A stretch of DNA of 64,000 nucleotides, from positions 42,538 through 106,537 of the forward strand of contig JANXCC010000001.1 in assembly GCA_025060395.1 (NCBI GenBank), in the 5' to 3' direction. The DNA is from Candidatus Bipolaricaulota bacterium (GTDB lineage: Bacteria; Bipolaricaulota; Bipolaricaulia; RBG-16-55-9; DRXL01). The translations under genes were made by a program, and so were the position numbers. Below, piece by piece: positions 5,071 through 52,650 of this stretch. Position 1 is the first letter of the stretch. Each line of letters opens with the position of its first letter. Under the pieces are notes generated by a model, which made no database searches, was not told where the DNA came from, and saw nothing but the letters and a program-made list of their open reading frames with translations.

Positions 5071-5168
5071 TCTTCGAAAGTGGGGAGGTCAGGCAAGCGA
5101 ATACCGTCACACGCGCTACGGGCAGCAAAGTCTTCGTTAAAGATGGCGGCTACTCGACCAATCGTGAT

Positions 5169-7834: not shown

Positions 7835-7861
7835 CGTTCCCCCCTTGGATATACAAGGGGC

Positions 7862-8578: not shown

Positions 8579-8656
8579 CGCACAGACCTCCTGACACAGT
8601 TTGACAGGTCTTCGGTGCCACGCTTTTTCAGCTAAACAATGCAACAGAGAACTGTC

Positions 8657-10537: not shown

Positions 10538-10562
10538 CCCGCTCCTTCCGTCGGAAGCAAGC

Positions 10563-12695
10563 TTATCGCGTGGTAGCCGGCAGCGGCTGATCTACTGGTG
10601 TATCTGTCAGCCAGTACGAGACTAGGGTTTGCAGCATCCGGAAGTCTATAGTCTTGCCGCAGGTCCCGACGACTTCCTCGTCCTCGAGCCAGAGCGCAAT
10701 AGCCGTCTGAATCTGAGCGAAACTGATCTTGCTCGACAGGGAGACATCGATAGCATTCTGCTCGACGTTCAAATACGCAATAGCTACAGGGATATCTAAG
10801 CATTCCACAACGTTCACGGTGGTATCCTTGCTGACTTCGCCCTCGAAGCGCGGCGAGAAGGACTCTATGAGCCCTTGGATCGTGTAAGGGCTAATGAGCT
10901 CGTCGGTAGGCACGACCACTTCATAGAGGATGCTGCGACGTGCTCCTGCGGGGATCTTCTCTGTGAAGATCCAGGTGTTTGCGACCTGTTTGAACGCCGC
11001 GCTGACAGTTCCCTCCAAGGGGCGCACCTCCCAGCGCTCTGGAAGCTTCTCGGTGAGCGTCAGGCCAAGGATCTCTTTCTCGGCTTGGATCTCGACCCTT
11101 ACTCTGAAGACATTGCCGTTAGGGGCACGGAGATAGACCTGGAAGAACGGCAGGGGCGTCAAGATCGAGCGCATCGCTGTTCCGCCTATAGCCGTATCTT
11201 CTGGGATGGTGCGATCGACAGGCACCCCCGCTAAATGATGGGCAACGATCTGCTTGAGTACATCCACGCTCAACGGTGCCTCACACGTGCCTGGCACAGG
11301 GGTATCCTCTTGCCAGAATGCGACCGCCCGTTGCATCTGATCGAACGTGATCTCTTCTGACATTCGGAGATCGATCGTATCGGTGGCGGTATCTAAGTGA
11401 GCGATGGCGACGATCGCCGGCAAGCACCTTACAATCGAGATGCGCGAGAACGCTTCATTGGTCTCACCAAGCACGGGGATCTCTTTGATATCGGGGACGG
11501 TGCTAGAGATCCTCCCGACGATATCGAAATCTTGGGGCAGCGGCCCGCCGATCAGCTGATCGGTCTTGGGGATAGTCACGTCATAGACGATCCGACGCGT
11601 CTCGCCGCTGCGCACAATTGTGGGGAATATCCATTGGGTTTGAGCGGCTTTGAACGTCGCCCCGGCGCTGTCGATCGGGGTGACCTCCCAGTTAGCGGGG
11701 AGGTCTTCATCCAATCCTAAGCCGCTCATCGAGGTTCGGACGGTGATGGTGACCGTGACTCTGAATGTCGTTCCAGGGGCGGCGTGCGTCGTCGAGAGGG
11801 TGCGCCGCGCGAACGCGACTTCCTTCTCGACCATGATGGTCTTGGTGACCTGGCCGATAGCGCCCTTGTCGTCGGTGACGCGTAGCGTTACTCGCACTTC
11901 GCCGATTTGGGTGAATGTATATTGCACAATGGGCTTCTCGGTGGAGATCTCAAAGACGCCGTCGGAGTTGAAGTCCCATTCGTATTTGACGATCTTGCCG
12001 TCGGCCACGGTGCTGGCGCGGGCGTCGAACGTCACGGGCACGTTGACGCTCACGACTGTAGGAGAGTACGTAAAGTCGGCTTTCGGGGGCGCGCGCCGGA
12101 AAGCGCTCAGCACTAATGGTTCAGTGAGGCTGGGCAACTGAAATCTCTCTGGAGCGAGCGGATCGCCGCTGAGCACCTGCCAGCCGTCAATGCCTCGTGT
12201 GAACGTTGGGGTAATGACGATTTCGAACTCCTCGGGCAGCCCGTTGATGACGACGCCGTCGGCGCGCTCGGGCAGCCAGCGCCAGGTCATGGTGGCTACC
12301 GGCGGGTTGAACTCATAGGTGTCAGCAGGGTCATCGCGCAGGGCGATCCGTGCCGTGGGCGGCAGCCCATCGAAGCGCAGGGTTGCCTCGCCGCCCCCGA
12401 CGTTGCCCGGCTTGCTCAAGATAATTATCAGACTCAATGCGTTTGTCGTTGCATCGCGATGGAGAAAGACAATCGCTTGATTAGGGACTTCTAAGCCTGT
12501 GTTAGGCTGGTCGTTGGTGTAACGATAGAAATCTATAGCGGATCCCGGTTGGGTCAGGGGAGTGATCGGCGTGGAGAAGGCTCCTTGACGGGCTAGGAAG
12601 AACGAAGTCGTCTGTACCGTCCCTTGGCTTGCTCCGGTCACAGCAATGAGGGCCAACACTATGAGCCCACAGAGAGCTTGTCGAATGACACGCAT
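10563..12695 (-). CDS. secreted PKD protein with two tandem (beta-sandwich + duplicated-helix) units
   Basis: SD AAGGAGG before MRVIRQ; PKD YEWDFNSDG; internal duplication visible. Confidence 0.8.
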   Translation of the reverse strand: MRVIRQALCGLIVLALIAVTGASQGTVQTTSFFLARQGAFSTPITPLTQPGSAIDFYRYTNDQPNTGLEVPNQAIVFLHRDATTNALSLIIILSKPGNVGGGEATLRFDGLPPTARIALRDDPADTYEFNPPVATMTWRWLPERADGVVINGLPEEFEIVITPTFTRGIDGWQVLSGDPLAPERFQLPSLTEPLVLSAFRRAPPKADFTYSPTVVSVNVPVTFDARASTVADGKIVKYEWDFNSDGVFEISTEKPIVQYTFTQIGEVRVTLRVTDDKGAIGQVTKTIMVEKEVAFARRTLSTTHAAPGTTFRVTVTITVRTSMSGLGLDEDLPANWEVTPIDSAGATFKAAQTQWIFPTIVRSGETRRIVYDVTIPKTDQLIGGPLPQDFDIVGRISSTVPDIKEIPVLGETNEAFSRISIVRCLPAIVAIAHLDTATDTIDLRMSEEITFDQMQRAVAFWQEDTPVPGTCEAPLSVDVLKQIVAHHLAGVPVDRTIPEDTAIGGTAMRSILTPLPFFQVYLRAPNGNVFRVRVEIQAEKEILGLTLTEKLPERWEVRPLEGTVSAAFKQVANTWIFTEKIPAGARRSILYEVVVPTDELISPYTIQGLIESFSPRFEGEVSKDTTVNVVECLDIPVAIAYLNVEQNAIDVSLSSKISFAQIQTAIALWLEDEEVVGTCGKTIDFRMLQTLVSYWLTDTPVDQPLPATTR

Positions 12696-12869
12696 CGCGG
12701 CCTCCTTCTGTATCATAGCCTGTCTCAGTATAGCGAGCGATCCCTCCTGAGACAGTGATTCAAGTTACCCATTCCGCAAGCTCCCCTTGGTTTGAGCATA
12801 GCACAGCTTGTGCCCAAAGGCAAGCGGGCGTAATGGCCATCACATTCTATAAAAATTTACGGGTGCCTT

Positions 12870-13045
12870 CGAGGTCTGGGGCGACACTCGCAATGGGCGT
12901 TTGTCTGGAAGCGAAGTGCGCTCTGTCCAGATAAAACGAAGTTGGGCCCCATGCCGTGTGACAGGAGGGTCGAGGCTTTGTTCGCGGCAATCTGGCGGGC
13001 CAGATTGACGATGGCTTTTCGGATGGGGCCCAACCCAGACTATCG
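12870..13045 (+). ncRNA. candidate structured non-coding RNA, unassigned
   Basis: Nested stems including a perfect 12-bp GTTGGGCCCCAT/ATGGGGCCCAAC, CAATCTGGC/GCCAGATTG, TCTGGA/TCCAGA and outer GTCTGG/CCAGAC; no convincing ORF. Confidence 0.4.
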
Positions 13046-13120
13046 TAATTTTAGTATCAGGGATAGCCGCTCTCTCAGTCAATGAGGTCTATCAAGAGAA
13101 AACCTGAAGTTGATCAGAAC

Positions 13121-13435
13121 TCATTGGAGCTCTTGGTACAGATCGACATCGCCGTTCTTAGCGATTTGCTTGTCTTCGTAGGGAGCCCCTAAGCGCCGAT
13201 AGAACTCGTCGGCAACGTTGTGAAAGACGCCCGTCACTGTAGCGATGAGCCAGTAGCGCAGCGTGCCAAAGTGCAATTGGATGACCTTAAGCGCTAACCG
13301 CGTGCACGCGTAGTTTAGAAGCCCGGCGAATGCGGCGTCGTAGTTGTGGGCCTTTGCCTGGACGACGATTTGCTGAGCAAGTTGGTCGATGAGGGGATCC
13401 AAGGGACGACGATCTTGTTGCGTGATGTAAGGCAT
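13121..13435 (-). CDS. small conserved hypothetical protein (MPYI...PYEDxxIxxNGDV family)
   Basis: SD AAGGAGG before MPYITQQDRR; LLNY, EFYRR, PYEDKQIAKNGDV. Confidence 0.75.
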   Translation of the reverse strand: MPYITQQDRRPLDPLIDQLAQQIVVQAKAHNYDAAFAGLLNYACTRLALKVIQLHFGTLRYWLIATVTGVFHNVADEFYRRLGAPYEDKQIAKNGDVDLYQELQ

Positions 13436-13605
13436 AGAGACCTCCTTTGCAAGAGTTATTCTACCGAATGGGGGTAAGCCCAGCGATTCGCTTCTCAGAG
13501 GGAAGCGAGCCCTGTAAGAGCGTCTCTCCCAGAGCTGTCTAGCGCCCATACCCTCGATAGTGTAAAATAGCCGCCGTAAATCTAACACATAAGGAGGGTT
13601 GAACT

Positions 13606-15534
13606 ATGATCGTCAAGCTGCCCGACGGACGGATCATCGAGCACCATGGCCCTGCAGCCCTGAAGGACGTGCTCGCCACCACGGCGAAGGAGCTCCTGGC
13701 GACCACCGTCGGCGCCAAGCTTGACGGTGAAATCGTCGATTTCCATCGAGTGCTCCCGGATGACGCCACAGTCGAGCTGATCCCCCTAGATTCCCCTGAG
13801 GGAGCTTCGATCTATAGACATAGCTATTCGCATATTATGGCCCAGGCCGTGCGGCGACTCTTCCCCGGTGCAAAATTAGCTATCGGCCCAGCTATCGAAG
13901 ATGGCTTCTATTACGACTTCGATGTCGAACGCCCTTTCACACCTGAGGACCTAGAAAAGATCGAAGCCGAGATGGAGAAGATCGTCCAGGAGAATTATAA
14001 ATTTGAGAGACTCGAGATCTCTAAAGACGAAGCGCGCCATATGCTCCGGGACGAGCCGTACAAGCTTGAGCTCTTGGACGAAATCCCCGACGAGACCGTC
14101 TCGTTCTATCGCGACGGGGATTTTATAGATCTCTGTCGCGGCCCGCATATGCTCAGCACCGGCCAAGTCAAATACTTTAAGCTCTTAAACGTTGCTGGGG
14201 CGTACTGGCGCGGCGACGAGCGCAACAAGATGCTCCAACGCATCTACGGCACCGCGTTCGCGACCAAAGAAGCGTTAGAGCAATACCTACAGATGCTCGA
14301 AGAGGCTAAGAAACGCGATCACAGAAAGCTTGGCAGGGAGCTAGAGATATTCTTCTTCGATGAGGAGGTTGGGCCGGGACTGCCCTTATGGCTGCCCAAG
14401 GGCGCGATCATCATCGAAGAATTAGAGAAATTAGCGAAAGAGACTGAAGCCAAAGCTGGGTATCTGAGAGTCCGTACGCCGCACATCTGCAAAGAGTCTA
14501 TGTATCTGAAGAGCGGGCACTTGCCGTACTATCAAGAATCAATGTACCCGCCGATGGAGCTGGAGGGCGTAAGATACTATCTGAAGCCCATGAACTGCCC
14601 CCACCATCATAAGATCTTTGCTGCCGTACCCAGAAGCTATCGCGATCTCCCCCTGAGATTAGCCGAGTACGGCACGTGCTATCGCTACGAAAAGTCAGGC
14701 GAGCTCTTTGGGCTGATGCGCGTGCGCAGCATGCAAATGAACGACGCCCATATCTACTGCACGCTGGAGCAGTTTGAAGAAGAGTTTCTCGCCGTCTGCC
14801 GAATGTATCTGAATTACTTTAAGCTCTTTGGGATCGAAAAGTATCTGATGCGCTTCAGCACTCATGATCCGAAAGAGTTGGGCAAGAAGTACGTCAACGA
14901 GCCCGAACTCTGGAAGCAGACCGAAGATATGGTGCGCCGTGCGCTTAAGAACGGCGGGATCAATTACGTCGAAGTCCCAGGAGAAGCTGCCTTCTACGGG
15001 CCAAAGATCGACGTGCAGGTCTGGAGCGCCATCGGGCGCGAGTTCACCCTAGCGACCAATCAAGTCGACTTTGCTGTCCCTAGGCGCTTCGGGCTGGTCT
15101 ACAAGAACGCTCAGGGGCAAGACGAGATCCCTATCTGCATCCATCGCGCGCCATTAGGCACTCACGAGCGCTTAATCGGCTTCTTGATCGAGCATTACGC
15201 CGGAGCCTTCCCCGTATGGCTCTCCCCAGTCCAGGCCGTAGTGCTGCCTATCACTGATCGTCAGCACGAGTACGCGCAGAGGGTCCTCCACAAGCTCAAG
15301 GAGGCCAACATCCGTGCTGAGCTCGACGGTAGCAGCCATACGCTGAACTATCGCATTCGGCACCATCAATCCCAGAAGGTCCCATATATGCTTATTGTGG
15401 GGGAACGCGAGGCGCAGAGCGATCAGGTCGCGGTGCGCCTGCGCACGGGGAAGGATCTTGGGCCCAAGCCCCTCAATGAAGTCATTCAGTTAATCTGTGA
15501 GAAGATCGCTACTCGGTCGCTAGATTTGGAGTGA
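13606..15534 (+). CDS. thrS: threonine--tRNA ligase
   Basis: TGS domain, DLCRGPH, KPMNCPHH, AAFYGPKID, IHRA motifs. Confidence 0.98.
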   Translation: MIVKLPDGRIIEHHGPAALKDVLATTAKELLATTVGAKLDGEIVDFHRVLPDDATVELIPLDSPEGASIYRHSYSHIMAQAVRRLFPGAKLAIGPAIEDGFYYDFDVERPFTPEDLEKIEAEMEKIVQENYKFERLEISKDEARHMLRDEPYKLELLDEIPDETVSFYRDGDFIDLCRGPHMLSTGQVKYFKLLNVAGAYWRGDERNKMLQRIYGTAFATKEALEQYLQMLEEAKKRDHRKLGRELEIFFFDEEVGPGLPLWLPKGAIIIEELEKLAKETEAKAGYLRVRTPHICKESMYLKSGHLPYYQESMYPPMELEGVRYYLKPMNCPHHHKIFAAVPRSYRDLPLRLAEYGTCYRYEKSGELFGLMRVRSMQMNDAHIYCTLEQFEEEFLAVCRMYLNYFKLFGIEKYLMRFSTHDPKELGKKYVNEPELWKQTEDMVRRALKNGGINYVEVPGEAAFYGPKIDVQVWSAIGREFTLATNQVDFAVPRRFGLVYKNAQGQDEIPICIHRAPLGTHERLIGFLIEHYAGAFPVWLSPVQAVVLPITDRQHEYAQRVLHKLKEANIRAELDGSSHTLNYRIRHHQSQKVPYMLIVGEREAQSDQVAVRLRTGKDLGPKPLNEVIQLICEKIATRSLDLE

Positions 15535-40079: not shown

Positions 40080-41273
40080 ATGGCCTCGATGCCCCCGAGT
40101 CCCCTCATAAGGAAGCGCCTCGCGATCTTAGGTTCGACCGGCTCGGTTGGGTCGCAGACGCTCGCCGTCGTCGAAGCTCTCACTCGAGCCGGGCATGCTT
40201 TTTCGGTGGTAGCCCTGGCAGCAGGCAAGAATTTAGAGCTTCTGGCAGCCCAAGCTCAGCGCTTCCAGCCAAAACTAATCGCCATCGAGCGCGCAAAAGA
40301 CCTGAGCAAGTTGCGACGGCTCGTGGGGACTTTCTGGAGTGGGGAGATCGTCGTCGGCGAGGAGGGACTAATTGCTGCAGCTACTCACCCTGATGCCGAT
40401 CTTATCGTCAACGCCCTGGTCGGCGCCCTGGGGTTGATCCCGACTCTTGAGGCCCTCAAAGCCAAGAAAATCGTCGCACTAGCGAACAAAGAGTCCCTGG
40501 TCATCGGTGGGCATCTCGTGCACGGCGTACAGTCCAAGCGAAGCCTGATCCCCATAGACAGCGAGCACAGCGCGCTCTTCCAGCTCATGCACTCTCTCCA
40601 CCCTAGCGAGATCGAGAGAATTATTCTGACGGCGTCGGGTGGGCCGTTTCGCACTCGTCCGTTAGATTCTTTCGCGCAGATCACGGTAGCAGAAGCCCTG
40701 CAGCACCCCACCTGGCAGATGGGCAAGCGAATCACTATAGATTCAGCGACGCTCGTCAACAAAGCCTTCGAAGTGATCGAAGCCCATTGGCTCTTTGATC
40801 TACCTTATGAAAAAATCTCGGTGCTCATCCATCCGCAGAGCGTTGTGCACGGCTTGGTCGAGCTGACCGATGGCAGCATCCTTGCTCATCTGAGCACGAC
40901 GGATATGAAGCTACCCATTCAGTATGCCCTCACATACCCGGAGCGCGTTCCATCGTCAGTAGCGAGACTAGACTTAGTCAAACAGAAGCTCGAATTTGCG
41001 CCGGTGGGGCGGGAGCGCTATCCGGCATTTTGGCTGGTGTGCGAGGCCGGGCAGCGCGGCGGGACGTTCCCTGCCGTGGCGAACGCTGCCGACGAAGTCT
41101 TCGTACAGAGATTCTTAAAGAACGAGATTCCGTTTGTGGGAATCGCTCGAGGCATAGAGCGAGTGCTTGCGGAGCATGAGGGCGTGCCTACCCCTGCTCT
41201 TGAAGAGATTCTTGAAGCCGATCGGTGGGCGCGCCAGCGAGCTAGCGAATTCCCTCCAAATTCGCTATCATAA
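40080..41273 (+). CDS. dxr: 1-deoxy-D-xylulose-5-phosphate reductoisomerase
   Basis: LGSTGSVG, LANKESLV, PIDSEHSA, HPTWQMGKRITIDSAT. Confidence 0.96.
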   Translation: MASMPPSPLIRKRLAILGSTGSVGSQTLAVVEALTRAGHAFSVVALAAGKNLELLAAQAQRFQPKLIAIERAKDLSKLRRLVGTFWSGEIVVGEEGLIAAATHPDADLIVNALVGALGLIPTLEALKAKKIVALANKESLVIGGHLVHGVQSKRSLIPIDSEHSALFQLMHSLHPSEIERIILTASGGPFRTRPLDSFAQITVAEALQHPTWQMGKRITIDSATLVNKAFEVIEAHWLFDLPYEKISVLIHPQSVVHGLVELTDGSILAHLSTTDMKLPIQYALTYPERVPSSVARLDLVKQKLEFAPVGRERYPAFWLVCEAGQRGGTFPAVANAADEVFVQRFLKNEIPFVGIARGIERVLAEHEGVPTPALEEILEADRWARQRASEFPPNSLS

Positions 41274-41280
41274 TAAAGCT

Positions 41281-42468
41281 ATGGAGAACGCGCGCAAGTG
41301 GTTTGCTGTCTCGGCTGTGTTGTTGCTCCTTTTGGTCTTTACGATCGCCCTTGCAAACTACAATCAAGAGTGGAAGAGGTACCAACGGGCGTATCTGATC
41401 AAAGTCTTCACGGAGAAGGCCTTGGCGGAGAAGGGCTCGCTCTCACTTCTCGATCAGATCGCGATTGCTGTGAGCGCCGAAGCCAATCTTCAGATAAAGA
41501 AGGTCGTCACGGAAGTGGGGCGCAGTGCCGATCTGTGTATGACGTGTCACATCAACGTCGGTGTTCCCGGCTTTGCCCAAGAACCCTTGAAAGATCTCTT
41601 AGAGACCCATAAGAATTTGAAGATCATCGAGCAGTTGCCGTTCGATCAAGTCGGCTGTACCGCATGTCATGGGGGCAACTCTCTAGCGCTGACTTCTGAG
41701 CTCGCTCATCACGAGATGCGCTCGCGCTTTGCCCAGATTTTTGAAGAATCTATCGAGAAGTTGCGCTCGGAACGCTGGGCGGAGCGCCAGCAGGGTATTG
41801 AACGAATTCGCTGGATGACCGCGAACGACTTTGGATTTGTCTTTAACGCCCCGAAGGAGAAACGCGAGGAAGCGATCGCTCGGATTCTCGCGTGGTGGCA
41901 ACTCCACAAAGACACGTTCTTGGTCGAGGGCTTTGGGGAGCGGAGCTCGCCGTTCCGCACAGAAAATCCTCAGGCCAAAGTAATCGAAGCCCGCACCGAC
42001 GTCTCGATCGCTGGGGAACCGTTGCAATTTGTCGGCTCAGCAACATGCGTAGCGTGTCATGGGCATCCCGAGATCAGCGATGCCTACATTCCTGAGTCGA
42101 GCAAGCGTCACGTCGAGCTCTGGTTCCGCCCGGAGTTTATGACCAGCACAAACATTGAAGCATTCAAAGAGCACCCGTTCATAGACGAACAGACCCTCAA
42201 GACCATGGACGTGACGTGCGAGGCGTGTCACGGTCCAGGGAGCGAGTACACGAAGCTGATGCAGAAGGGGATGGCGCTCGAAGCCTTGGGGCAGAGCGTG
42301 GAAGCCGCGGCCTTGATCGCCAAGGGCAAGGAGATCGCGCGCGCCAATGCCCGCACAATCATCAGCGAGCACGACCCGGCAACAGGCTACTCCCGCGTCT
42401 GGGCGATCTTCGAGCGCCTCATCGAAAAGGCATTGGCAGCCCAAGGACAGAACCGCCCTACAGAATAA
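41281..42468 (+). CDS. membrane-anchored tetraheme cytochrome c
   Basis: N-terminal TM helix, QEWKRYQ; CxxCH x4 (CMTCH, CTACH, CVACH, CEACH). Confidence 0.88.
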   Translation: MENARKWFAVSAVLLLLLVFTIALANYNQEWKRYQRAYLIKVFTEKALAEKGSLSLLDQIAIAVSAEANLQIKKVVTEVGRSADLCMTCHINVGVPGFAQEPLKDLLETHKNLKIIEQLPFDQVGCTACHGGNSLALTSELAHHEMRSRFAQIFEESIEKLRSERWAERQQGIERIRWMTANDFGFVFNAPKEKREEAIARILAWWQLHKDTFLVEGFGERSSPFRTENPQAKVIEARTDVSIAGEPLQFVGSATCVACHGHPEISDAYIPESSKRHVELWFRPEFMTSTNIEAFKEHPFIDEQTLKTMDVTCEACHGPGSEYTKLMQKGMALEALGQSVEAAALIAKGKEIARANARTIISEHDPATGYSRVWAIFERLIEKALAAQGQNRPTE

Positions 42469-44341: not shown

Positions 44342-44974
44342 ATGGCTCTCTGTGTGTACTGTGCCAAGAAGGCGGGCAAACGCTCATGCCCAGCGCTGGG
44401 AGGCCTCATCTGTCCCAGCTGTTGTGGACACCATCGAGGTATCGCGATCAGTTGTCCCGTTAGTTGCAAGTATCTCAAGACCCACGAGAGCTATCAACGG
44501 GTCCGCCTAGCGGAAGAGTTCCACGCGCTCTGGGTTGAGAAGACGGAACCGCTCTATAAGGCCGGCAAGGAGCGCTCAATCGATCTTCTAGTATGGATAG
44601 AGATGCTGATCTATCAGTTCTATCGTGAGCGCGCGTTGGGCACAGACAGCGAAGTCGTCGAGGCCCTTGAATTTTTGCGACGTCGGTTCAGTTCGTTGAT
44701 AATCGTCGAAGCCGGAGGTACGACCTTAGCCAAGCATCTGTGGGAAGGACTCCAAGAGTTTCTCAAGAGAGAGTCGTTCCCTGCAGAAGCGGTCTCTGAG
44801 GTTCTCGAGAAGAGCCTTGAGATCTTTCGGGCGTATGTAGACCCTGCACAACCACGAAGGTATTTGCACGGGATGTTGGGCCATGTCGAGCGATATTTTA
44901 CGCTCCCTGACGAGTTGAAAGGAAGTCCGTCGCTAATTGCTACCCCGCAGATCGTCACGCCCAAGATGTCTTAG
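44342..44974 (+). CDS. hypothetical protein with Cys-rich N-terminal metal-binding domain
   Basis: CVYC...CPALGGLICPSCCG...CPVSCKYL; start abuts the upstream stop. Confidence 0.7.
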   Translation: MALCVYCAKKAGKRSCPALGGLICPSCCGHHRGIAISCPVSCKYLKTHESYQRVRLAEEFHALWVEKTEPLYKAGKERSIDLLVWIEMLIYQFYRERALGTDSEVVEALEFLRRRFSSLIIVEAGGTTLAKHLWEGLQEFLKRESFPAEAVSEVLEKSLEIFRAYVDPAQPRRYLHGMLGHVERYFTLPDELKGSPSLIATPQIVTPKMS

Positions 44975-44981
44975 CGAACGG

Positions 44982-46025
44982 CTATTTCCAAGGGAGGACC
45001 CACTCCCACTGCGGACCGCGGAAGTACTGCCCGATAATGATTAGCACGATTATGGCTCCAACGACGAGCGTAAAGAGTGCGGTGGTGACGGGGCGATCTC
45101 GCAGCCGGCGTCCCACGGGTTTGCTCTTGTCTTTGCGCCAAAACTCGAGATAGGGCTCAATATACGGAATAGCCATCAAGAAGAGCACAAGGAGCGCAGG
45201 GATGATCACTCCGCCAATTGCTACGCTCGTCAACGGCCCAATATTAGGGGAGATCGCCAGGAGCTCTTGAATCCCCACGAAGTACCACGGGGCTTTTTCA
45301 GGGTTAGGCGTGAACGATGGGGTTGCCGGCTCTTCCAGCGGGGCATCGCGGAAGACAGAGTAGATCCCTAAGCCCGCTATTAAGAAGAACAGCACGGTGA
45401 ACGCCACATAAAGAAAGTATGGGTAGGTGATAATCTCTTCTTCTTCGGCGGGCAGGCGCTTCGCAAACGCTTCTAAAATCTTCTCGATCTTCTCACCGGT
45501 CAGCTCAGGGATCTCTTGAGCTCTGTGGTCCTTGCCGATATAGCTGAAGACGGCATAGAGCACCTCGAAATCGTTAGGATCGCCACCGCCCTCTAAGAGC
45601 GACTCCGTGCGATTACTTAAATCTTTTAGTCTCTTGACAGTGATCTTCTGGGTGGAGGGCAGCTCGCTCAAGGGGATCTTTTCGGCCGCATAGGCGAGGA
45701 CAGTACGCACCAGCTCCGGTTCAATCTGAATCGCTTCAGCAACCTCATAGCCAGGGACTTCGACTTCAATATCTTGATTGACAGAGATCTGGCACGAGAG
45801 TCTCCAGCCCTTGGCAAGTTGCTCTTCCCCTAAGACTTCTTTCTCGTTTTGGTTGGGGTCTCCACCGCCCTTGAGGACGCGCACAGCACACGTTGAGCAT
45901 TGCCCCTGGCCTCCACAGGTTGCCGGGAGCTGATCATCATAGCGCTGCTCTTTCAAGAGCTGCAAGAGATTGGTCCCAGGGCGAACGTCGAGCTCTTTTT
46001 GTCCTAGAATGACGACCTTGGGCAT
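44982..46025 (-). CDS. petD: [2Fe-2S] ferredoxin fused to cytochrome b6f-type subunit IV (cytochrome b C-terminal part)
   Basis: CGGQGQCSTC...LSCQ; then APLEEPA...TPNPEKAPWYFVGIQELL, IPYIE and three TM helices. Confidence 0.85.
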   Translation of the reverse strand: MPKVVILGQKELDVRPGTNLLQLLKEQRYDDQLPATCGGQGQCSTCAVRVLKGGGDPNQNEKEVLGEEQLAKGWRLSCQISVNQDIEVEVPGYEVAEAIQIEPELVRTVLAYAAEKIPLSELPSTQKITVKRLKDLSNRTESLLEGGGDPNDFEVLYAVFSYIGKDHRAQEIPELTGEKIEKILEAFAKRLPAEEEEIITYPYFLYVAFTVLFFLIAGLGIYSVFRDAPLEEPATPSFTPNPEKAPWYFVGIQELLAISPNIGPLTSVAIGGVIIPALLVLFLMAIPYIEPYLEFWRKDKSKPVGRRLRDRPVTTALFTLVVGAIIVLIIIGQYFRGPQWEWVLPWK

Positions 46026-46026
46026 A

Positions 46027-46665
46027 TCAGCTGACCCTCACTCCTACTTCAGCTGCTGCTTGTCGGAGTCTCTCGAGAACGGGCTTACCGCCAGGATAGC
46101 AACCATCGAGCTTGGCCTTTCCTGCTGCCAGCGCTTCAGCGAACTCTTCGCAAGTCGGGTAGCCACAGGCCGAGCAATCGAATCCGGGGAGGACTGCGCG
46201 CAGCTTAGCCGCTGCCGGTGAGAGCGCCGGGGCCTTCGGAGCCTCTTCGACAGCCTTACCTTCGACCTTGGGCCAAGACATCACTAAGGGCTTAAAGAGC
46301 TCAATTGTGAGATCGTTCTTCACCGAGATCTGGCATGAGAGGACCCAGCCCTCCTTGCGCAATTTGTCGCTTAATGGGCCGAGCATCGCCGGGGTGATCT
46401 GCTCAGGCTTAAGCCCGTCTAAGACTTTGACACGACACGTCGCGCACGTACCTTTGCCGCCACACTGAGCAAACAGATCGTACCCCGCTTTCTTGAGGGA
46501 TTGCATCAGATTTTGTTCTAACGGCAAGACCAGCTCATTGCCATCATTTACTATCTTGACTTTCGCTTCACCCTCAACCGTAAGCAGGTTCTTCACTACC
46601 CCTAAGATGACAGCGACGGAGATGGCCATGAGAGCCATCGTCGCTACGGGCACAAGGTAGACCAT
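46027..46665 (-). CDS. membrane-anchored NqrF-like [2Fe-2S] domain + RnfB-like Fe-S domain chimera
   Basis: TM helix; CGGKGTCATC...LSCQ; LPGFDCSACGYPTCEEFA...CYPGG. Confidence 0.85.
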   Translation of the reverse strand: MVYLVPVATMALMAISVAVILGVVKNLLTVEGEAKVKIVNDGNELVLPLEQNLMQSLKKAGYDLFAQCGGKGTCATCRVKVLDGLKPEQITPAMLGPLSDKLRKEGWVLSCQISVKNDLTIELFKPLVMSWPKVEGKAVEEAPKAPALSPAAAKLRAVLPGFDCSACGYPTCEEFAEALAAGKAKLDGCYPGGKPVLERLRQAAAEVGVRVS

Positions 46666-46666
46666 C

Positions 46667-47263
46667 TTAGCCTCCAAAGTCACGAATGTTAATCATCCCT
46701 GAGAACCCTACGAAGCTCATGGCCATTAACCCTGCGATGATGAGGGCGATCCCTGGGCCTTTAAGCCCTTCAGGGATGGGGGCGAATCGCAGGCGTTCTC
46801 TAATAGCAGCCATAAGGATAATCGCGAGCGCCCAGCCAACTCCACCACCAAACCCGTAGGCCACGCTTTGCATGAAGCCCAGATTCCACGTGGCAATCGC
46901 GAAGAGCACCCCGCCTAAGATCGCGCAATTGACCGTGATCAACGGCAAGAAGATCCCCAGCGAGCTATACAGCGCTGGGAGGAAGCGCTTCATGAACATC
47001 TCCACAACCTGAACCAAGAACGCGATCGTGACAATATAGACGATGAGCGACAGATACCCTACGCCCAACGGATCGAGCACGAAGTGCTTAATGAGCCAGT
47101 TAGCAGGCAAGGTCATCGTCAGCACGAAGATGACCGCCATGCCCATCCCTGACGCCGACGCGTACTCCCCTGATACCCCAATAAACGGGCAGATCCCCAG
47201 AAACGTCGTCAGCAGAATATTATTCGTTAAGATCGCACCCAGCACGATGAGGAAGATGTCCAT
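46667..47263 (-). CDS. rnfA: Rnf subunit A (NqrE family)
   Basis: FLGICPF, GMGMAV, FLPLITVNCAILG, MSFVGF. Confidence 0.93.
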   Translation of the reverse strand: MDIFLIVLGAILTNNILLTTFLGICPFIGVSGEYASASGMGMAVIFVLTMTLPANWLIKHFVLDPLGVGYLSLIVYIVTIAFLVQVVEMFMKRFLPALYSSLGIFLPLITVNCAILGGVLFAIATWNLGFMQSVAYGFGGGVGWALAIILMAAIRERLRFAPIPEGLKGPGIALIIAGLMAMSFVGFSGMINIRDFGG

Positions 47264-47266
47264 ATC

Positions 47267-47950
47267 TTAGGAGCCACCTCCGATCTGCCCGCCTGGCGAG
47301 AAGTGCTTGACGATCCCAACGTACAGCCCGACAACCAAGAATGCCCCGGCGGGGATGATCATGATGACCCAGGGGGTCCAGCCGCTGAAAATCTGAATGC
47401 CAAAGAGACTGCCAAAGCCCAGCAGCTCACGGATAATCCCTAGAAGCGTCAACGACATTGTGAATCCCAGGCCGACTCCCAAAGCATCGAGCGCTGAGAG
47501 CCCAGGGCTGTTCTGGCTCGCAAACGCTTCAGCACGCCCTAACACAAAGCAGTTTGTAATAATTAACGGGACATACGGGCCCAAGGCTGCCGACAGCGGC
47601 GGCAGATACGCCCGCAAGAAGATATCGACGATCGTAACCCAGAACGCAATGATGATCATGTACGCTGGGAGTCGCACCTCCGCAGGGATGAGGGTGCGTA
47701 GAGCTGCCACCGTAACACTGGAAGCAACGGTCGCGACCAGCGTTGCCAGCCCCTGCGCCATGCCGTTGATGGCCATGTTCGTAGCGCCCATAGTGGGACA
47801 CATCGCCAAGATCATTCGGAATGTCGGATTATCATCCCAGATGTCACGAACTAACTCTTTCCACCCCTTGGTCTGGGGCAGCCGCTGCGTTAATGGGATC
47901 GCTGGAGCTGATGCTTGTTGCATCGTCGTTGTCTTCACTTCTGCCGCCAT
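47267..47950 (-). CDS. rnfE: Rnf subunit E (NqrD family)
   Basis: LAMCPT, VRLP, PLIITNCFVLGRAEAFA, IRELLGFG, PAGAF. Confidence 0.93.
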   Translation of the reverse strand: MAAEVKTTTMQQASAPAIPLTQRLPQTKGWKELVRDIWDDNPTFRMILAMCPTMGATNMAINGMAQGLATLVATVASSVTVAALRTLIPAEVRLPAYMIIIAFWVTIVDIFLRAYLPPLSAALGPYVPLIITNCFVLGRAEAFASQNSPGLSALDALGVGLGFTMSLTLLGIIRELLGFGSLFGIQIFSGWTPWVIMIIPAGAFLVVGLYVGIVKHFSPGGQIGGGS

Positions 47951-47983
47951 CTGCCTCAACTCCTTCTGGCCGGCTTTGGCCAC

Positions 47984-48016
47984 AAAAAGCATACTATAAT
48001 AGTCTGCTTTTTTCAA
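47984..48016 (-). promoter_or_regulatory. AT-rich palindrome containing a putative internal promoter
   Basis: Minus strand TTGAAA-17nt-TATGCT overlapping an AAAAAGCA.ACTAT.ATAGT.TGCTTTTT inverted repeat. Confidence 0.45.
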
Positions 48017-48022
48017 GGCTCG

Positions 48023-48718
48023 CTACCGGCGCTCTTTTTGCACGATCTTGCGTAGGTTCGCGATCGCCTGGTTCAGCAGATCCCGCACGGTCGTCGACGT
48101 ATACGTCGCCCCGGTGATCGCGTCGAATTGATTAGGAGCCTTAGGGGTGTTGGGATCACGGAACTTGACGAATTCGATCCTAGGATCAGGCTTGATCCCC
48201 TTGAACTGGCTCCAGAACTGTTCTTCAGTCATGCGGAAGCCCAGTCCTGGGGTCTCCCCGATCTCGAAGGTGACGACGTGAGCCCCGATAATCTCAGAGA
48301 GATCAGGCTTGAGGGCGACTTGCATCGCGACCAGCCCCTGAAAGCCGCTCCCCGCAATGCGGATCACATAAGCCATTAGATCCCCACCGATCTTGTCTTT
48401 GTAGACCTTCCAATAGGTGAAGCTGTCCGTCTTGATCTCTTCAATATGCTCTTTGAAATACTGATCGACCTGGGCGGCGGAGAGCTTGGGCAATCCCTCG
48501 GCGGGAAAGAGCTCTTCGGCGGTGTACAGCCCTACAGCCACGAGAATACTCGATCTCAACCGAGCTTTGGCGTTCGCTTCGATGGTCGCTTTGGTCACTT
48601 CGTTGACAAGAGCAAGCAGCCCGCCGGCGATCGCCGCGATCGCCGTCAGCACGATGATCATGCGCCACTCGTGCGGCCCGATCAGCTTCTTCTGCTTCTT
48701 GGGAGCTTGCTGTGCCAT
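48023..48718 (-). CDS. rnfG: Rnf subunit G (FMN-binding)
   Basis: N-terminal TM helix, GSGFQG, ETPGLG, FMNylation motif DAITGATYTS. Confidence 0.92.
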   Translation of the reverse strand: MAQQAPKKQKKLIGPHEWRMIIVLTAIAAIAGGLLALVNEVTKATIEANAKARLRSSILVAVGLYTAEELFPAEGLPKLSAAQVDQYFKEHIEEIKTDSFTYWKVYKDKIGGDLMAYVIRIAGSGFQGLVAMQVALKPDLSEIIGAHVVTFEIGETPGLGFRMTEEQFWSQFKGIKPDPRIEFVKFRDPNTPKAPNQFDAITGATYTSTTVRDLLNQAIANLRKIVQKERR

Positions 48719-48722
48719 GGAA

Positions 48723-49841
48723 TCACCTCTTTTGGATCGCGGGAGCGGAGAAGCTCTTTGGGATTGTGAATCTGTCGAGCAACGGCGTGAACATATTGCC
48801 AATCAAGATAGAGAACGTCACCCATTCGGCGTAGCCGGTCAGCCCACGTCCTAGGACCGTCAGCACACCGAGCATCATCCCGAAGATCCAACGGCCACGG
48901 ACGGTCATAGGGCTGGTGACAGGATCAGTCGCATTGAGAAATGCCGCAAAGAGCAAGCCTCCTGACAACATCGTGTAGAGGCCATCGGGGAATCTAGAGG
49001 GATCGACGAAGTGGAGGAACTGTGAGGTTAGCCCGGCGCTCACGATCATCACAATCGAAACGCGCCAATCGATGACTCGTGCCTGCAGCAGATACAAGCC
49101 GCTCAAGAGCACGAGCATGGCTGAAGTGGCCCCTAGGACGTCTGCGCGTCCAAACCCTGTCACGAGCGTAAACAGATCGGGATTGGCAAGAGCAGGATCC
49201 CTGAAGGCTCCCAGAGGGGTTGCCTTAGCAATAGCATCGAGCCCCTTGACCGACTCCGGCGACCAATGTAAAAAGCCCCCAAGCCCATCGGTTAGGGGAT
49301 TGAAGGGTACATACCAGAAGTTGGTCATTGCTGCGGGAAACGCTAATAACAAGAAGGCTCGCCCGCTGATCGCCGGGTTGAAGATATTGTAGCCTGAGCC
49401 CCCAAAGAGCTCTTTGATCCCAATAGCAAAGGCAATCCCCACCGCAACCATCCAGAAAGGCAGCGTTGGGGGCAACGAGAGCGCGTAGAGCATACACGTC
49501 ACTAGGAGCCCCTCGGTAATCTCATGGCGACGAATAGCACAGAACGTAAGCTCTACAGCAATCCCCACAAGATACGTTACGATGATGATCGCTAGCGAGC
49601 GCCAGCCGTAAAAGTATATGCTGGCCAAGACCAAGGGGATGCACGCCAGGAGCGGTGCGCCCATATAGCGTTGCATCCCGATTGCATCGCGGATATAGGG
49701 AGCTTGACGAGCAGCCTTCTCGCTGCCGCCGAAGATCGCGTCCTTAATGCCCTCGACGATAATAGCCAAACCCTCACGACGGCGTGCTACCAAGTCTTGA
49801 TGAATTCTTTCGAACAGCTCGTAGATTCTGTCCTGAAGCAT
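48723..49841 (-). CDS. rnfD: Rnf subunit D (NqrB family)
   Basis: KELFGGSGYNIFNPA, FMNylation site KATPL, ATDPVTSP. Confidence 0.93.
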   Translation of the reverse strand: MLQDRIYELFERIHQDLVARRREGLAIIVEGIKDAIFGGSEKAARQAPYIRDAIGMQRYMGAPLLACIPLVLASIYFYGWRSLAIIIVTYLVGIAVELTFCAIRRHEITEGLLVTCMLYALSLPPTLPFWMVAVGIAFAIGIKELFGGSGYNIFNPAISGRAFLLLAFPAAMTNFWYVPFNPLTDGLGGFLHWSPESVKGLDAIAKATPLGAFRDPALANPDLFTLVTGFGRADVLGATSAMLVLLSGLYLLQARVIDWRVSIVMIVSAGLTSQFLHFVDPSRFPDGLYTMLSGGLLFAAFLNATDPVTSPMTVRGRWIFGMMLGVLTVLGRGLTGYAEWVTFSILIGNMFTPLLDRFTIPKSFSAPAIQKR

Positions 49842-49854
49842 ATTCTACTCCTCT

Positions 49855-51282
49855 CTAGGCAGCTTCAGCCAGGATCTTACGCTTGCCTTCACGAATCTGC
49901 TCCAACAGCGGGATCTTGCTGGGACAGACATACGCGCACAGGCCACACTCAATACACGCAAAGAGATCCATGTCCTGGGCTTCGCTCAAGAGCCCATGGG
50001 CGGAGTATTCCCCAAGCAACGCCGGCATGAGATTCTGGGGACATACATCGACACAGAAGCCGCACCTGACGCACGGCCTAGGATTACCGTTCAAGCTTGT
50101 GGTTGCGCGTTTGTAGCGAACCCAGGGCACGCTTAGATAAACGCCGGTGAACGAGTCGCGATCAAATCCTGGGCCAGCCACGGGAAAGAGCTCACGCTCG
50201 GCTTCTCGTAACACGATGACCGCGGAAATCTCTTTAGTAATCGGGGTATTGAGATCGTCCTGGGCCTGCCCGCGCAGGACGCTCCCCAGGACAATCCGCC
50301 CATTACACTTCGTATTATTATTCTCCAACAGATTGCTTAAAGGCGTACCCACGCGCACCCGATAGTTCCCTGGCTCTTGAATAGCTGAGCCAGCCACTGA
50401 AACGACGCGCTCGACGAACGGCTTACCCTCGACGACGGCCTCGTAGGCCGCTACACACTGCTGGACGTCTTGCACGACGCAGCCAACGTCGGTCGCGTAG
50501 CCCCGCTGGGGCAGGAGCACCCCCAGGAGGGTGCGAATGAGCACGGCATCGTCATGCTGGGGATATTTGGGGCGCAATTGGTGAATCGTGCACCAATCAT
50601 AGTATTCCAAGCGCTCGATCAGCTCTTCGTAGATCCTGGGTTTGTTATACCCAAGCCCAATATGTACCTGAACGTTACCCAGGGCTTGGCGCAGGATCTT
50701 CATCCCGTTTACGAACTTGTCGAACTCTTCATAGAGCAACTGATCGGTGGCTTCGCAGAACGGCTCGGTCTCGACGGCATTAATGATGAGATAGCGAATC
50801 TTCTCAGGGGTGGTGAACGCCGAGTGATAGGCGGTAGGGAAGCCAGCTTGGCCACCGGCTGTGACCCCTGCTTCGTAGAGAATTCTTCCTAGCTCTTCTG
50901 GGGAGAGCCTCTCGTAGTTAGCGGGAGGGTTGAGCTTGGCCCAATCGTCCTTGCCGTCGGACTCGATGTGGACGCAGAGCGTCTCACCTCCTAGGGGGTG
51001 AGGGCGCTTGTCGATCTTGACGACCCTGCCCGAGATGCTCGCGTGGACAGGGGTTGAAGGCTTCTTGGGATTGGGCTCAGCCCGCCCGATTATCTGCCCT
51101 GTCTTGACGCGGTCGCCCTCCTTGACGACAGGAGCCACTTCGGCGGAAAACCCCTGACGCAAAGGGATGATCACTCTTTGGGGTGTCGGCGCTGTTTTTA
51201 ATCTCTTGCCGCGCGGTGTCCCCTCAAAGAGCCCAAAGTAGTGGCCACCTTTAAAGGTCTTCAGAGATCCCAAGACGGCCAT
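49855..51282 (-). CDS. rnfC: RnfC-like subunit with degenerate FMN/NAD motifs and two [4Fe-4S] clusters
   Basis: FKGG, VKEGDRVKTGQ, PVHASISG, AGFPT, CVRCGFCVDVCP, CIECGLCAYVCPS. Confidence 0.88.
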   Translation of the reverse strand: MAVLGSLKTFKGGHYFGLFEGTPRGKRLKTAPTPQRVIIPLRQGFSAEVAPVVKEGDRVKTGQIIGRAEPNPKKPSTPVHASISGRVVKIDKRPHPLGGETLCVHIESDGKDDWAKLNPPANYERLSPEELGRILYEAGVTAGGQAGFPTAYHSAFTTPEKIRYLIINAVETEPFCEATDQLLYEEFDKFVNGMKILRQALGNVQVHIGLGYNKPRIYEELIERLEYYDWCTIHQLRPKYPQHDDAVLIRTLLGVLLPQRGYATDVGCVVQDVQQCVAAYEAVVEGKPFVERVVSVAGSAIQEPGNYRVRVGTPLSNLLENNNTKCNGRIVLGSVLRGQAQDDLNTPITKEISAVIVLREAERELFPVAGPGFDRDSFTGVYLSVPWVRYKRATTSLNGNPRPCVRCGFCVDVCPQNLMPALLGEYSAHGLLSEAQDMDLFACIECGLCAYVCPSKIPLLEQIREGKRKILAEAA

Positions 51283-51284
51283 TG

Positions 51285-52043
51285 CTAACGTCGCTTCCTT
51301 TCTTCAGTCCAGTAGGGCTTGCTGTACTCGTCCTTGCGGATCCTCCAGAAATGGAACGCTATGAGGAAGATCGTAATCATGGGCAACACAAAGACGTGAA
51401 GCACATACCAACGCAGGAGCGCCGGCTGCCACAGGTCTGTGCCGCCTAGCAGAATCTCCTGGACATACGGCCCCACAACGGGCACCCCAGCGGCAATGTT
51501 GCTAGCGATCTTGGCGGCATAATAGCCCAGCTGATCCCACGGCAGAATATACCCGCTAAAGGCAAAGAGAACCGTAATCACCAGGAGCAGCACCCCGATG
51601 ACCCAATTGAATTCCCTGGGCTTCTGATACGATCCGGTGAAGAAGACCCGCAGCATATGGAAGAAGACGGCAAAGACCATCAGCTCCGCAGCCCACTTGT
51701 GCATATTGCGCATAAATCTGCCCAAAGGAACTACGTTGATGATCTCCCGGACAGAGTCATAAGCGCGCTCGACCGAGGGCACGTAATAGAACATCAAGAA
51801 GCCACCAGTGATAGCCAAGATAAGGAAGAGCCAGGTGCTGATAACCCCCATCCAGACCCAGTTATAACTGAGTCTCGCTGATTCTTTATGAATCTTAGCG
51901 GGGAGAATATGTACGAAGAAGTTGCGGCGATTCATGGCGAGTCGGTCGGCTTCGGTCTGAGGTAATCCCTCACGACGGAAGATCGAGAGCCAGACTCGCG
52001 AGCGTCGGATGCCCTGTAAGATTAGAAGGATCTTGTCGATCAT
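51285..52043 (-). CDS. petB: cytochrome b6-type (split cytochrome b, N-terminal four-helix part)
   Basis: Four heme His ligands (MHKW, FHML, LHVF, FHFW); PREFNW, GYILPWDQ. Confidence 0.93.
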   Translation of the reverse strand: MIDKILLILQGIRRSRVWLSIFRREGLPQTEADRLAMNRRNFFVHILPAKIHKESARLSYNWVWMGVISTWLFLILAITGGFLMFYYVPSVERAYDSVREIINVVPLGRFMRNMHKWAAELMVFAVFFHMLRVFFTGSYQKPREFNWVIGVLLLVITVLFAFSGYILPWDQLGYYAAKIASNIAAGVPVVGPYVQEILLGGTDLWQPALLRWYVLHVFVLPMITIFLIAFHFWRIRKDEYSKPYWTEERKRR

Positions 52044-52603
52044 GAGAACTTGATGTCGCTCCCGTCGGGTGTGGGACCTTCGATCTCTTGGCCTTCAACC
52101 GTGAGATACCAGGTAGAAGGGACAGTCTGAGCGTTGTCGACCTGAAGGCGTCCATCGGGCGTCAGGGATAGCCTGTAGAATGGTAACGGCTTAGGAGCCG
52201 GTCCCCCGAGCACCCGCCCATCACGCGCAAAGACGCTCCCATGACAAGGACAGACAGCGTGCACCACAGGATATTCTCGGGTTGGTGGCCCAAACGGCTT
52301 ATAGCTGCACCCCAGATGGGTGCAAGTCATAGAGAGTGCTTGGAAGCCTAAGGGTGTTCGGAATATCAGGACCCTCTTGGCTTCGATAGGACGCATCTCC
52401 CCGACTTGATAATCACTGGGACGTCCCACTATGAAAGTTGTTGTGGGCTCGTAGGTAAGTCGTGGTTTGAGATAGAAGGGGATACCTTGGGCTATGCCTC
52501 CAAGGGCCAGAGCGAGCGATCCCCACCCTAGCCATCCTAAGAAGCGTCGCCGCGTCAACGACCCTATGGGAAGCTCGATAGTCGAATCTCTCTCGGCTTC
52601 CAT
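52040..52603 (-). CDS. petC: Rieske [2Fe-2S] protein with Tat signal-anchor
   Basis: LTRRRFL, CTHLGC, CPCHGS, GPAPKPL. Confidence 0.93.
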   Translation of the reverse strand: MEAERDSTIELPIGSLTRRRFLGWLGWGSLALALGGIAQGIPFYLKPRLTYEPTTTFIVGRPSDYQVGEMRPIEAKRVLIFRTPLGFQALSMTCTHLGCSYKPFGPPTREYPVVHAVCPCHGSVFARDGRVLGGPAPKPLPFYRLSLTPDGRLQVDNAQTVPSTWYLTVEGQEIEGPTPDGSDIKFS

Positions 52604-52650
52604 CAAGCCACCCTTCTCCTTCACATTGCAGCCGCACTGTCGTGTGCCGC

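Follow-up and report, generated by a model that had tools for sequence, protein, structure and literature searches.

An NqrF-type ferredoxin fused to a predicted cytochrome b6 subunit IV within an Rnf-interleaved operon of Bipolaricaulota

Rieske/cytochrome b complexes are normally fed by quinol alone, and the injection of electrons from ferredoxin at the cytoplasmic or stromal face of the b6f complex has been debated for decades in the context of cyclic electron flow. In the 64,000-nucleotide stretch analyzed here (designated as the window), which is part of contig JANXCC010000001.1 of a hot-spring Candidatus Bipolaricaulota bacterium (GCA_025060395.1), one gene encodes both a [2Fe-2S] ferredoxin and a part similar to subunit IV of the b6f complex. 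This fusion gene belongs to an operon that also encodes a Rieske protein, a cytochrome b6 and an Rnf-like complex.

Several described systems show partial similarity. A ferredoxin/FNR input at the stromal side of b6f during cyclic electron flow, with ferredoxins feeding haem cn, is an idea summarised in Dibrova 2017 (PMC5600118), which contains no mention of Rnf or Acetotherm. The available part of Kao and Hunte 2014 (PMC4122944) describes the APWY clade of split cytochromes b, none of which was characterised, and the PDWF-FeS clade (Alicycliphilus, Magnetospirillum and Turneriella), in which cytochrome b is fused to iron-sulfur/flavin modules. In one sentence of its main text, Takami 2012 (PMC3267732) reported that rnfCDGEAB clusters with genes for Rieske and cytochrome b in Ca. 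Acetothermum autotrophicum, and there Rnf is treated as an ordinary ferredoxin:NAD+ pump. The Rnf of Acetothermia is also treated as a standard pump in Colman 2022, and Rieske is never mentioned in the part of that paper available.

On the basis of sequence comparison, the fusion gene is assigned to a split Rieske/cytochrome b6 complex of the APWY type as its subunit IV, with an acquired NqrF-type ferredoxin and a novel helical domain. The preferred reading, with a probability of roughly 55%, is that the tethered ferredoxin serves as a port for electrons on the cytoplasmic side of cytochrome b6, connecting haem bH with an Rnf-derived iron-sulfur/NAD(H) module.

Anatomy and distribution of the fusion gene

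The gene and its parts have the following coordinates in the window.

44982..46025, minus strand: whole fusion gene (ferredoxin, helical domain and subunit IV part), an open reading frame (ORF) with ATG start, 347 amino acids
45744..46025, minus strand: [2Fe-2S] ferredoxin domain of the NqrF type, residues 1-94 (PF00111, invariant cysteines, structural match to NqrF)
45462..45719, minus strand: orphan helical domain, residues 103-188 (AlphaFold2)
44985..45437, minus strand: predicted subunit IV part, residues 197-347, three transmembrane (TM) helices (hydropathy, profiles, PDB sequence matches)
45282..45293, minus strand: motif APWY of the quinol oxidation site (Qo), residues 245-248, at the PEWY position (alignments)

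The Pfam family Fer2 (PF00111) matches residues 8-82 of the fusion protein with 46 bits against a cut-off of 21, and among NCBIfam models the ferredoxin portion of NqrF ranks first. The complete nqrF model (TIGR01941) scores 61.5 bits against a cut-off of 295, with only model positions 41-122 covered, and the Pfam scan found no family of flavin adenine dinucleotide (FAD)/NADH-binding domains after the ferredoxin; the protein is thus not a member of NqrF itself. The cluster ligands Cys37, Cys43, Cys46 and Cys78 are invariant across 42 full-length relatives, and all four are aligned in register with those of Vibrio NqrF chains. The best structural match of the domain by VIA is NqrF 7xk3_F (Z 13.6, root-mean-square deviation 2.8, 94 residues aligned). 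At the sequence level, the NqrF match (E 3.6e-10) ranks behind the ISC-like ferredoxin 3ah7.

The helical domain of about 95 amino acids was assigned to no family in the Pfam scan. AlphaFold2 predicts helices at residues 103-116, 130-138, 140-144, 150-165, 168-171 and 177-188, and the domain modelled by itself reaches a predicted local distance difference test (pLDDT) score of 81.7 and a predicted template modelling (pTM) score of 0.74. No matching fold was found with Foldseek (best E 0.37 for the domain folded alone) or VIA-align (best Z 5.5), and the rows from ESM Atlas are limited to small helical proteins without a name and weak similarities to helix-hairpin-helix or copper-storage proteins. 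An acidic tether predicted with low confidence (residues ~189-200) joins the domain to the subunit IV part.

Three hydrophobic windows (197-226, 261-295 and 310-338) follow the order of helices E, F and G of subunit IV, and the corresponding TM helices of the AlphaFold2 model are 200-225, 267-293 and 312-334. A phmmer search with residues 195-347 against PDB chain sequences returned 7 matches at E ≤ 10, each of them to a b6f subunit IV or a mitochondrial cytochrome b, with weak scores (best E 0.04). In the alignments, A245-P-W-Y248 falls on P-E-W-Y of b6f subunit IV and chicken cytochrome b; P246, W247 and Y248 are invariant and A245 is present in at least 90% of the 42 sequences. The protein thereby shows the hallmark of the APWY clade, an APWY Qo motif on a split cytochrome b. 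The NCBIfam model for ExtQ (NF040970) matches residues 202-346 (E 1.8e-12, 47.7 bits, below the 150-bit cut-off), weaker NCBIfam matches of the C-terminal 145 residues are to the C-terminal half of actinobacterial QcrB and to b6f subunit IV, and TIGR01156 scores 17.6 bits against a cut-off of 127. The profile built from the fusion family itself retrieves many proteins corresponding to subunit IV or the C-terminal part of cytochrome b (E 1e-19 to 1e-30), and outside the phylum it returns only such parts. The nearest database matches of the fusion protein carry PF00032.

No signal peptide was found; the protein opens with the first strand of the ferredoxin, and there is no hydrophobic window before residue 197. 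The N-terminus of subunit IV is known to be cytoplasmic, and the loop between TM2 and TM3 of the fusion protein holds 8 Lys/Arg residues. Based on this homology and these charges, the N-terminal ~200 residues, including the ferredoxin, would lie on the cytoplasmic side. An earlier interpretation made from the sequence alone (hereafter the sequence-only reading) had described a ferredoxin, a helical linker and a three-TM subunit IV with APWY and without signal peptide. This anatomy is confirmed by Pfam, AlphaFold2, hydropathy and alignments, and the cytoplasmic N-terminus that it stated agrees with both the subunit IV homology and the charged loop.

For comparison, 41 genomes were used: the window's own and 40 relatives. 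The fusion is full-length in one stop-free frame in 25 of them, with 53-100% identity (53-91% in the other genomes), and two genomes from one genus (G030 and G032) carry it as two adjacent genes for ~200 and 162 amino acids. From a collection of 5.8 billion proteins, 85 matches were obtained, of which 53 cover at least 97% of the query (~334-357 amino acids) and 10 are separate N-terminal parts (199-208 amino acids). In a library of 1.84 billion representatives, two score below 1e-30, namely a full-length fusion and the N-terminal part of a split form; among its other listed matches, all cover the subunit IV part only except for one triple-ferredoxin protein. The protein P0138, with three matched stretches, was considered as a second fusion type and rejected, being a triple ferredoxin repeat without subunit IV.

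The separate N-terminal parts in G030, G032 and 10 of the 85 database matches would be expected if a frameshift, a misassembly or a gene-calling error had merged two genes in the window. Such an artefact has practically no probability and is refuted by the single stop-free frame in 25 genomes and by a 23-kb contig from an independent hot-spring metagenome study, which spans 44900-46800 with 86 substitutions and no indels. Contigs of another metagenome run, X4, reach over parts of this stretch and have no bearing on the question. The sequence-only reading had named a sequencing error, or homologs that are always split, as grounds for abandoning the fusion. With 25 fused genes against 2 split ones and the indel-free independent contig, neither is the case.

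The public records with relatives of the whole fusion are titled Candidatus Bipolaricaulota, Acetothermia or Fraserbacteria, besides two labelled "uncultured Thermotogae" and one labelled only "uncultured bacterium". In other records the similarity is limited to the subunit IV part, with Geobacter, Gemmatimonadota and Myxococcota among the taxa represented. The closest relatives from outside the phylum, those of Geobacter among them, are 39-45% identical and share the K-A-P-W-Y-F motif. Among the relatives found, the full-length fusion appears to be restricted to Bipolaricaulota. The fusion is genuine, lineage-specific and conserved over a lineage of order-to-class level.

The Rnf-interleaved operon and its variants

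The fusion gene is the last of nine genes on the minus strand, in the order Rieske, cytochrome b6, RnfC-D-G-E-A, RnfB' and fusion, where RnfB' designates a hybrid B subunit. In all 24 related loci, the gene immediately preceding the fusion is that of RnfB'. Cytochrome b6 is upstream of RnfC in 18 of the 18 loci that reach that far, and Rieske is present in 17 of them, the missing one being L017, whose contig starts within cytochrome b6. Of 56 loci from outside the phylum, 50 were found to contain a cytochrome b6 homologue, and in the rows inspected this homologue stops immediately ahead of the subunit IV match. In Bipolaricaulota, the rnf genes are thus inserted into a bc operon that is contiguous elsewhere.

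A reduced operon was also recognized, which in the loci examined consists of Rieske, cytochrome b6, RnfC, RnfD, RnfB' and the fusion gene, while RnfG, RnfE and RnfA are missing. The RnfB' of this form is longer, with about four N-terminal helices. In a genome-wide search, RnfA/E (PF02508) were not found in 11 of the 27 fusion-bearing genomes, and a dedicated check of five genomes that are 85-94% complete found RnfA/E in none of them. In these 11 genomes, RnfC, RnfD and RnfB' are kept only as neighbours of the bc genes. One genome, G014, has a C-terminal remnant of RnfA fused to a first RnfB' copy of the TM-[2Fe-2S] type (L099 8400-9773); a second, soluble [2Fe-2S]-[4Fe-4S] copy and then the fusion gene follow, so that three ferredoxin domains are encoded in a row. 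Because of this remnant, the reduced operon is interpreted as a derivative of the full form that arose by deletion. The position of the rnf genes between cytochrome b6 and subunit IV, and their retention only within the bc operon where RnfA/E are missing, suggest that RnfC, RnfD and RnfB' work with the bc complex.

The genes of the operon upstream of the fusion gene are as follows.

46027..46683, minus strand: RnfB', 218 amino acids (N-terminal TM helix, NqrF-like [2Fe-2S] domain, RnfB-type [4Fe-4S] domain, PF04060)
46667..47263, minus strand: RnfA (PF02508, 192 bits; TIGR01943, 220 bits)
47267..48016, minus strand: RnfE (PF02508, 189 bits; NF009070, 207.5 bits, above the 184-bit cut-off)
48023..48802, minus strand: RnfG, binding flavin mononucleotide (FMN) (PF04205, TIGR01947, tblastn ranges)
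48723..49841, minus strand: RnfD (TIGR01946, 249.6 bits, above the 207-bit cut-off)
49855..51282, minus strand: RnfC, with Nuo51-type FMN/NADH domain and two 4Fe-4S motifs (TIGR01945, PF01512, Fer4 families)
51285..52043, minus strand: four-helix cytochrome b6 (PF00033, ExtP and cytochrome b6 models, alignment)
52040..52624, minus strand: Rieske iron-sulfur protein (PF00355, NCBIfam Rieske models)

The intergenic gaps are between -4 and 13 bases, and the RnfD-RnfG gap is 4 with the corrected start of RnfG. The longest RnfG ORF opens at a TTG and overlaps RnfD by 80 bases. Since the alignments to relatives begin only at residue 27-28, translation more probably starts at the ATG at 48718.

RnfC (343.9 bits with TIGR01945, cut-off 245.95), RnfD and RnfE score above the curated cut-offs, while RnfA and RnfG are slightly under the TIGR cut-offs yet over those of Pfam. 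RnfC, RnfD, RnfE, RnfA and RnfG are all present in the operon, and the canonical polyferredoxin RnfB is not. Judged by these profile matches, the operon is classified as Rnf-like with a non-canonical B subunit. It contains the only Rnf of the window genome, which is 88% complete.

In RnfB', Pfam finds PF04060 and PF00111 only, and the 4Fe-4S ferredoxin repeats that make up the polyferredoxin of canonical RnfB were not found. With 47.5 bits, RnfB' stays under the 68.7-bit cut-off of the rnfB model. Comparison of 17 RnfB' sequences shows eight invariant cysteines. All 55 database relatives have PF00111, and 54 of them also have PF04060; the few that are named belong to Bipolaricaulota/Acetothermia. 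Within the genome, the ferredoxin of the fusion has its closest paralogue in RnfB', whose Fer2 domain is 49% identical to it over 75 residues. RnfB' may be an intermediate between RnfB and NqrF. Two distant full-operon genomes carry an extra short stretch similar to the PF04060 part of RnfB' in the interval from RnfB' to the fusion gene (L028 9777-9911 and L032 9812-9955).

The Rieske protein has a twin-arginine leader and the CTHLGC and CPCHGS boxes. The cytochrome b6 has four invariant haem-ligand histidines and no cysteine, and thus no covalent haem ci. A four-helix cytochrome b6 requires a subunit IV, and the fusion gene is the sole one found in the genome with the fusion as a query; a four-helix cytochrome b6 (PF00033) and a Rieske protein (PF00355), the partners expected of a subunit IV, are co-encoded in the same operon. 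The idea that the tether replaces covalent haem ci was dropped, because the absence of the C-x-G-G motif is unspecific: of the 50 cytochrome b6 homologues from outside the phylum that are closest to it, just 3 retain the motif at this position.

Other genes were observed around the operon and elsewhere in the genome. An ORF at 44342-44974 on the plus strand encodes a conserved 210-amino-acid protein with a cysteine-rich N-terminus and no family match; it is convergent with the fusion gene, with 7 bases between the ORF ends, and the two are neighbours across the genus. A second Rieske/cytochrome b cluster of the window genome (L093, G000:C4:15000-32000, at about 5100-14700) includes multihaem cytochromes c and a 323-amino-acid cytochrome b with a PPWY-type motif, and an NrfA-like protein and a Crp/Fnr regulator adjoin it. 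A MenA-type prenyltransferase, haem O synthase, an aa3-type oxidase and a NuoH fragment are also encoded elsewhere in this genome.

Putative electron route and its alternatives

A further gene of the window is relevant to the route of electrons.

41167..42468, plus strand: membrane-anchored tetrahaem cytochrome c with four CxxCH (sequence; weak matches to cytochrome c families in Pfam)

Homologues of this cytochrome are present in 27 of the 27 fusion-bearing genomes and in 1 of the 14 others, and the latter genome (G002) does hold the cytochrome b6 of the operon. In L028 and L032, it is encoded directly upstream of Rieske. The tetrahaem cytochrome c is a candidate acceptor for the Rieske protein and likely the equivalent of cytochrome c1 or f in the complex. 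COX1 was found in 26 of the 27 fusion-bearing genomes, against 2 of the 14 others; the single miss is a genome of 61% completeness, and one match is weak. NuoH was found in 6 of the 16 full-operon genomes and in all 11 reduced-operon genomes. In the genus of the window, it was not found in 11 of 14 genomes, including four that are 91-96% complete.

One genome of the same genus, G008 (90% complete), has RnfC-D-G-E-A-B' at the syntenic locus (L100, G008:C4:10000-29999), from which Rieske, cytochrome b6, the fusion gene and the tetrahaem cytochrome c are absent, at three separate places. Neither cytochrome b6, nor a homologue of the tetrahaem cytochrome c, nor COX1 was found in the whole genome, and a MenA-type gene is retained. 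The four genes were lost together in G008.

The sequence-only reading had proposed a tethered carrier that connects the b-haem chain to the Rnf module. The link to Rnf is strengthened by the gene order, by the adjacency of RnfB' in 24 of 24 loci and by the 11 genomes without RnfA/E; the Rnf of G008 without bc genes indicates that the Rnf module is independent of the tether. The ferredoxin might have no wiring to Rnf at all: it could be served by a soluble partner (ferredoxin, flavodoxin or a dehydrogenase) docking on the helical domain, or be a regulatory or assembly domain, and the operon would represent co-regulation alone. Consistent with this, an Rnf with the same RnfB' stands alone in G008, the helical domain without a matching fold or family could be a docking site, and contact between the ferredoxin and the Rnf proteins is putative. 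However, this alternative hardly explains why RnfC, RnfD and RnfB' are kept only in the bc operon in the 11 genomes, nor why RnfB' is immediately upstream in every one of the 24 loci, and it is considered unlikely.

In the preferred reading, the tethered ferredoxin would shuttle single electrons between the haem bH/Qi face (Qi, the quinone reduction site) and the Rnf-derived cytoplasmic iron-sulfur chain. The proposed chain consists of RnfC (FMN, NADH site and two [4Fe-4S]), RnfB' ([4Fe-4S] and [2Fe-2S]), the [2Fe-2S] of subunit IV, and haem bH. Inward flow is the most likely direction: electrons from NADH via RnfC, or from reduced ferredoxin via RnfB', would pass to the tethered ferredoxin, then to haem bH and to menaquinone at Qi. 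Menaquinol would be oxidized at Qo, and Rieske and then the tetrahaem cytochrome c (41167-42468) would carry the electrons on to the aa3-type oxidase. This direction is favoured by the co-occurrence of the oxidase and cytochrome c with the fusion and by the absence of NuoH from most full-operon genomes. From the observed architecture, conservation, operon structure and co-occurrence patterns, we infer the topology, the partners and their physical contact, and which way the electrons flow.

Outward flow can be proposed from the same architecture and synteny. In such a bifurcation at Qo, one electron of the quinol would go through Rieske and cytochrome c to the oxidase, and the other from haem bL through bH, the tethered ferredoxin, RnfB' and RnfC to reduce NAD+. 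A high-potential sink would be available, as the haem-copper oxidase co-occurs in 26 of 27 genomes, and a comparable idea has been proposed for anammox Rieske/cytochrome b complexes with NAD(P)H-oxidoreductase subunits. Standard potentials are about -74 mV for menaquinone and about -320 mV for NAD+. Transfer from menaquinol at Qo to NAD+ is thus uphill, and inward flow is favoured on this ground also; moreover, transfer from Qo to the cytoplasm would work against the membrane potential. In the full operon, the step from RnfB' to RnfC would also pump ions outward, raising the energy cost further, and the reduced-operon genomes have NuoH (11 of 11) and no obvious need for an NADH-making device. 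Outward flow is judged quite improbable.

A reversed Qo reaction (confurcation) would combine a low-potential electron from the tether via haems bH and bL with a high-potential one from cytochrome c via Rieske to reduce menaquinone. The motif is APWY, and Kao and Hunte 2014 (PMC4122944), in the part available, proposed reverse operation for complexes of this type, citing the p-cresol cluster of Geobacter. That reverse operation is itself only a proposal, though, a periplasmic donor enzyme is absent within and beside the operon, and the co-occurrence of the terminal oxidase fits forward quinol oxidation better. A reversed Qo is very unlikely.

Several points weigh against the preferred reading. 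For the full-length protein, the AlphaFold2 model (from the 42-sequence alignment) has a mean pLDDT of 71.5 and a pTM of 0.37, which leaves the mutual positions of the domains undefined in the model. All subunit IV family profiles score below their curated cut-offs, and Pfam PF00032 gives no match at E ≤ 0.01. The co-occurrence counts come from kin genomes and are not independent events. Contact of the ferredoxin with cytochrome b6, RnfB' or RnfC is something that we infer. A prediction of the complex of cytochrome b6, the full fusion protein, two haems and RnfB' residues 41-218 gave an interaction prediction score from aligned errors (ipSAE) of 0.00 and 0.00; results below the mark of 0.32 count neither for nor against binding. 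The Rnf of G008, with the same RnfB' and without bc genes, implies that RnfB' has another redox partner, and the operon could mean co-regulation only. Finally, the canonical path from NADH to RnfB' would be Rnf running backwards, which consumes the ion gradient, so that the preferred reading does not explain how NADH would feed the tether in the full form; there, either RnfB' is reduced by ferredoxin or RnfC reaches RnfB' directly.

If the ferredoxin does act as a cytoplasmic electron port, Rnf and the bc complex, both ancient energy converters, would be coupled in a way that is new. Because its n-side ferredoxin is bound covalently and an NADH-binding iron-sulfur module is encoded alongside, the system is well defined for work on expression, structure and kinetics. 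A tentative extension is a hard-wired "Rnf-bc" supercomplex, in which the tethered [2Fe-2S] domains of RnfB' and subunit IV would join an Rnf-derived NAD(H)/ferredoxin module to haem bH. Such a supercomplex would be a natural covalent version of the long-debated entry of ferredoxin into the n-side of b6-type complexes, and RnfB' would represent an intermediate from Rnf to Na+-NQR. The RnfB/NqrF hybrid subunit is relevant to the origin of Na+-NQR. In 11 of 27 genomes the "Rnf" lacks RnfA/E and, in the loci examined, RnfG, and therefore it cannot be an ion pump. The "Rnf" of Bipolaricaulota/Acetothermia needs re-reading in metabolic reconstructions of deep-branching acetogens.

Comparison with known systems

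The C-terminal part resembles PetD and the split Rieske/cytochrome b complexes, in particular the APWY clade and ExtQ of Geobacter, in its three TM helices, in the Qo motif in the conserved ef loop, and in its partners, a four-helix cytochrome b6 and a Rieske protein. It differs from PetD and ExtQ in the N-terminal extension of ~200 amino acids with the [2Fe-2S] ferredoxin and the helical domain. The gene order differs as well: cytochrome b6 and subunit IV genes are adjacent elsewhere, whereas here the rnf genes separate them.

The ferredoxin is similar to that of NqrF (PDB 7xk3 and 8a1t), with which its four cysteines align, and which is a membrane-tethered, mobile one-electron carrier. Unlike NqrF, the fusion protein has no FAD/NADH domain, and its membrane anchor is C-terminal (subunit IV), while that of NqrF is an N-terminal helix.

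The chloroplast b6f proposal, as far as given in the available part of Dibrova 2017, likewise places a [2Fe-2S] ferredoxin at the n-side of a b6-type complex. There the ferredoxin is soluble and enters via haem cn; in the window the tether is covalent, and the operon's cytochrome b6 contains no cysteine that could bind such a haem covalently. The PDWF-FeS clade (PMC4122944) also joins a cytochrome b with a Qo motif to a ferredoxin-type module. According to the available description, it represents another clade with another Qo motif, the modules are 4Fe-4S/MvhD or ferredoxin plus flavin reductase, and no Rnf genes are mentioned.

In the literature searched, no description of a ferredoxin-subunit IV fusion was found, although the supplements of Kao and Hunte 2014 and Takami 2012 may list such genes. 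The cluster of Takami 2012 is closest in phylum and operon idea, with six rnf genes accompanied by Rieske and cytochrome b. Its main text covers eight genes and mentions neither a subunit IV nor a ferredoxin fusion. The operon itself was thus already noted in 2012, and what is new here is the ferredoxin-subunit IV fusion inside this Rnf-interleaved operon.

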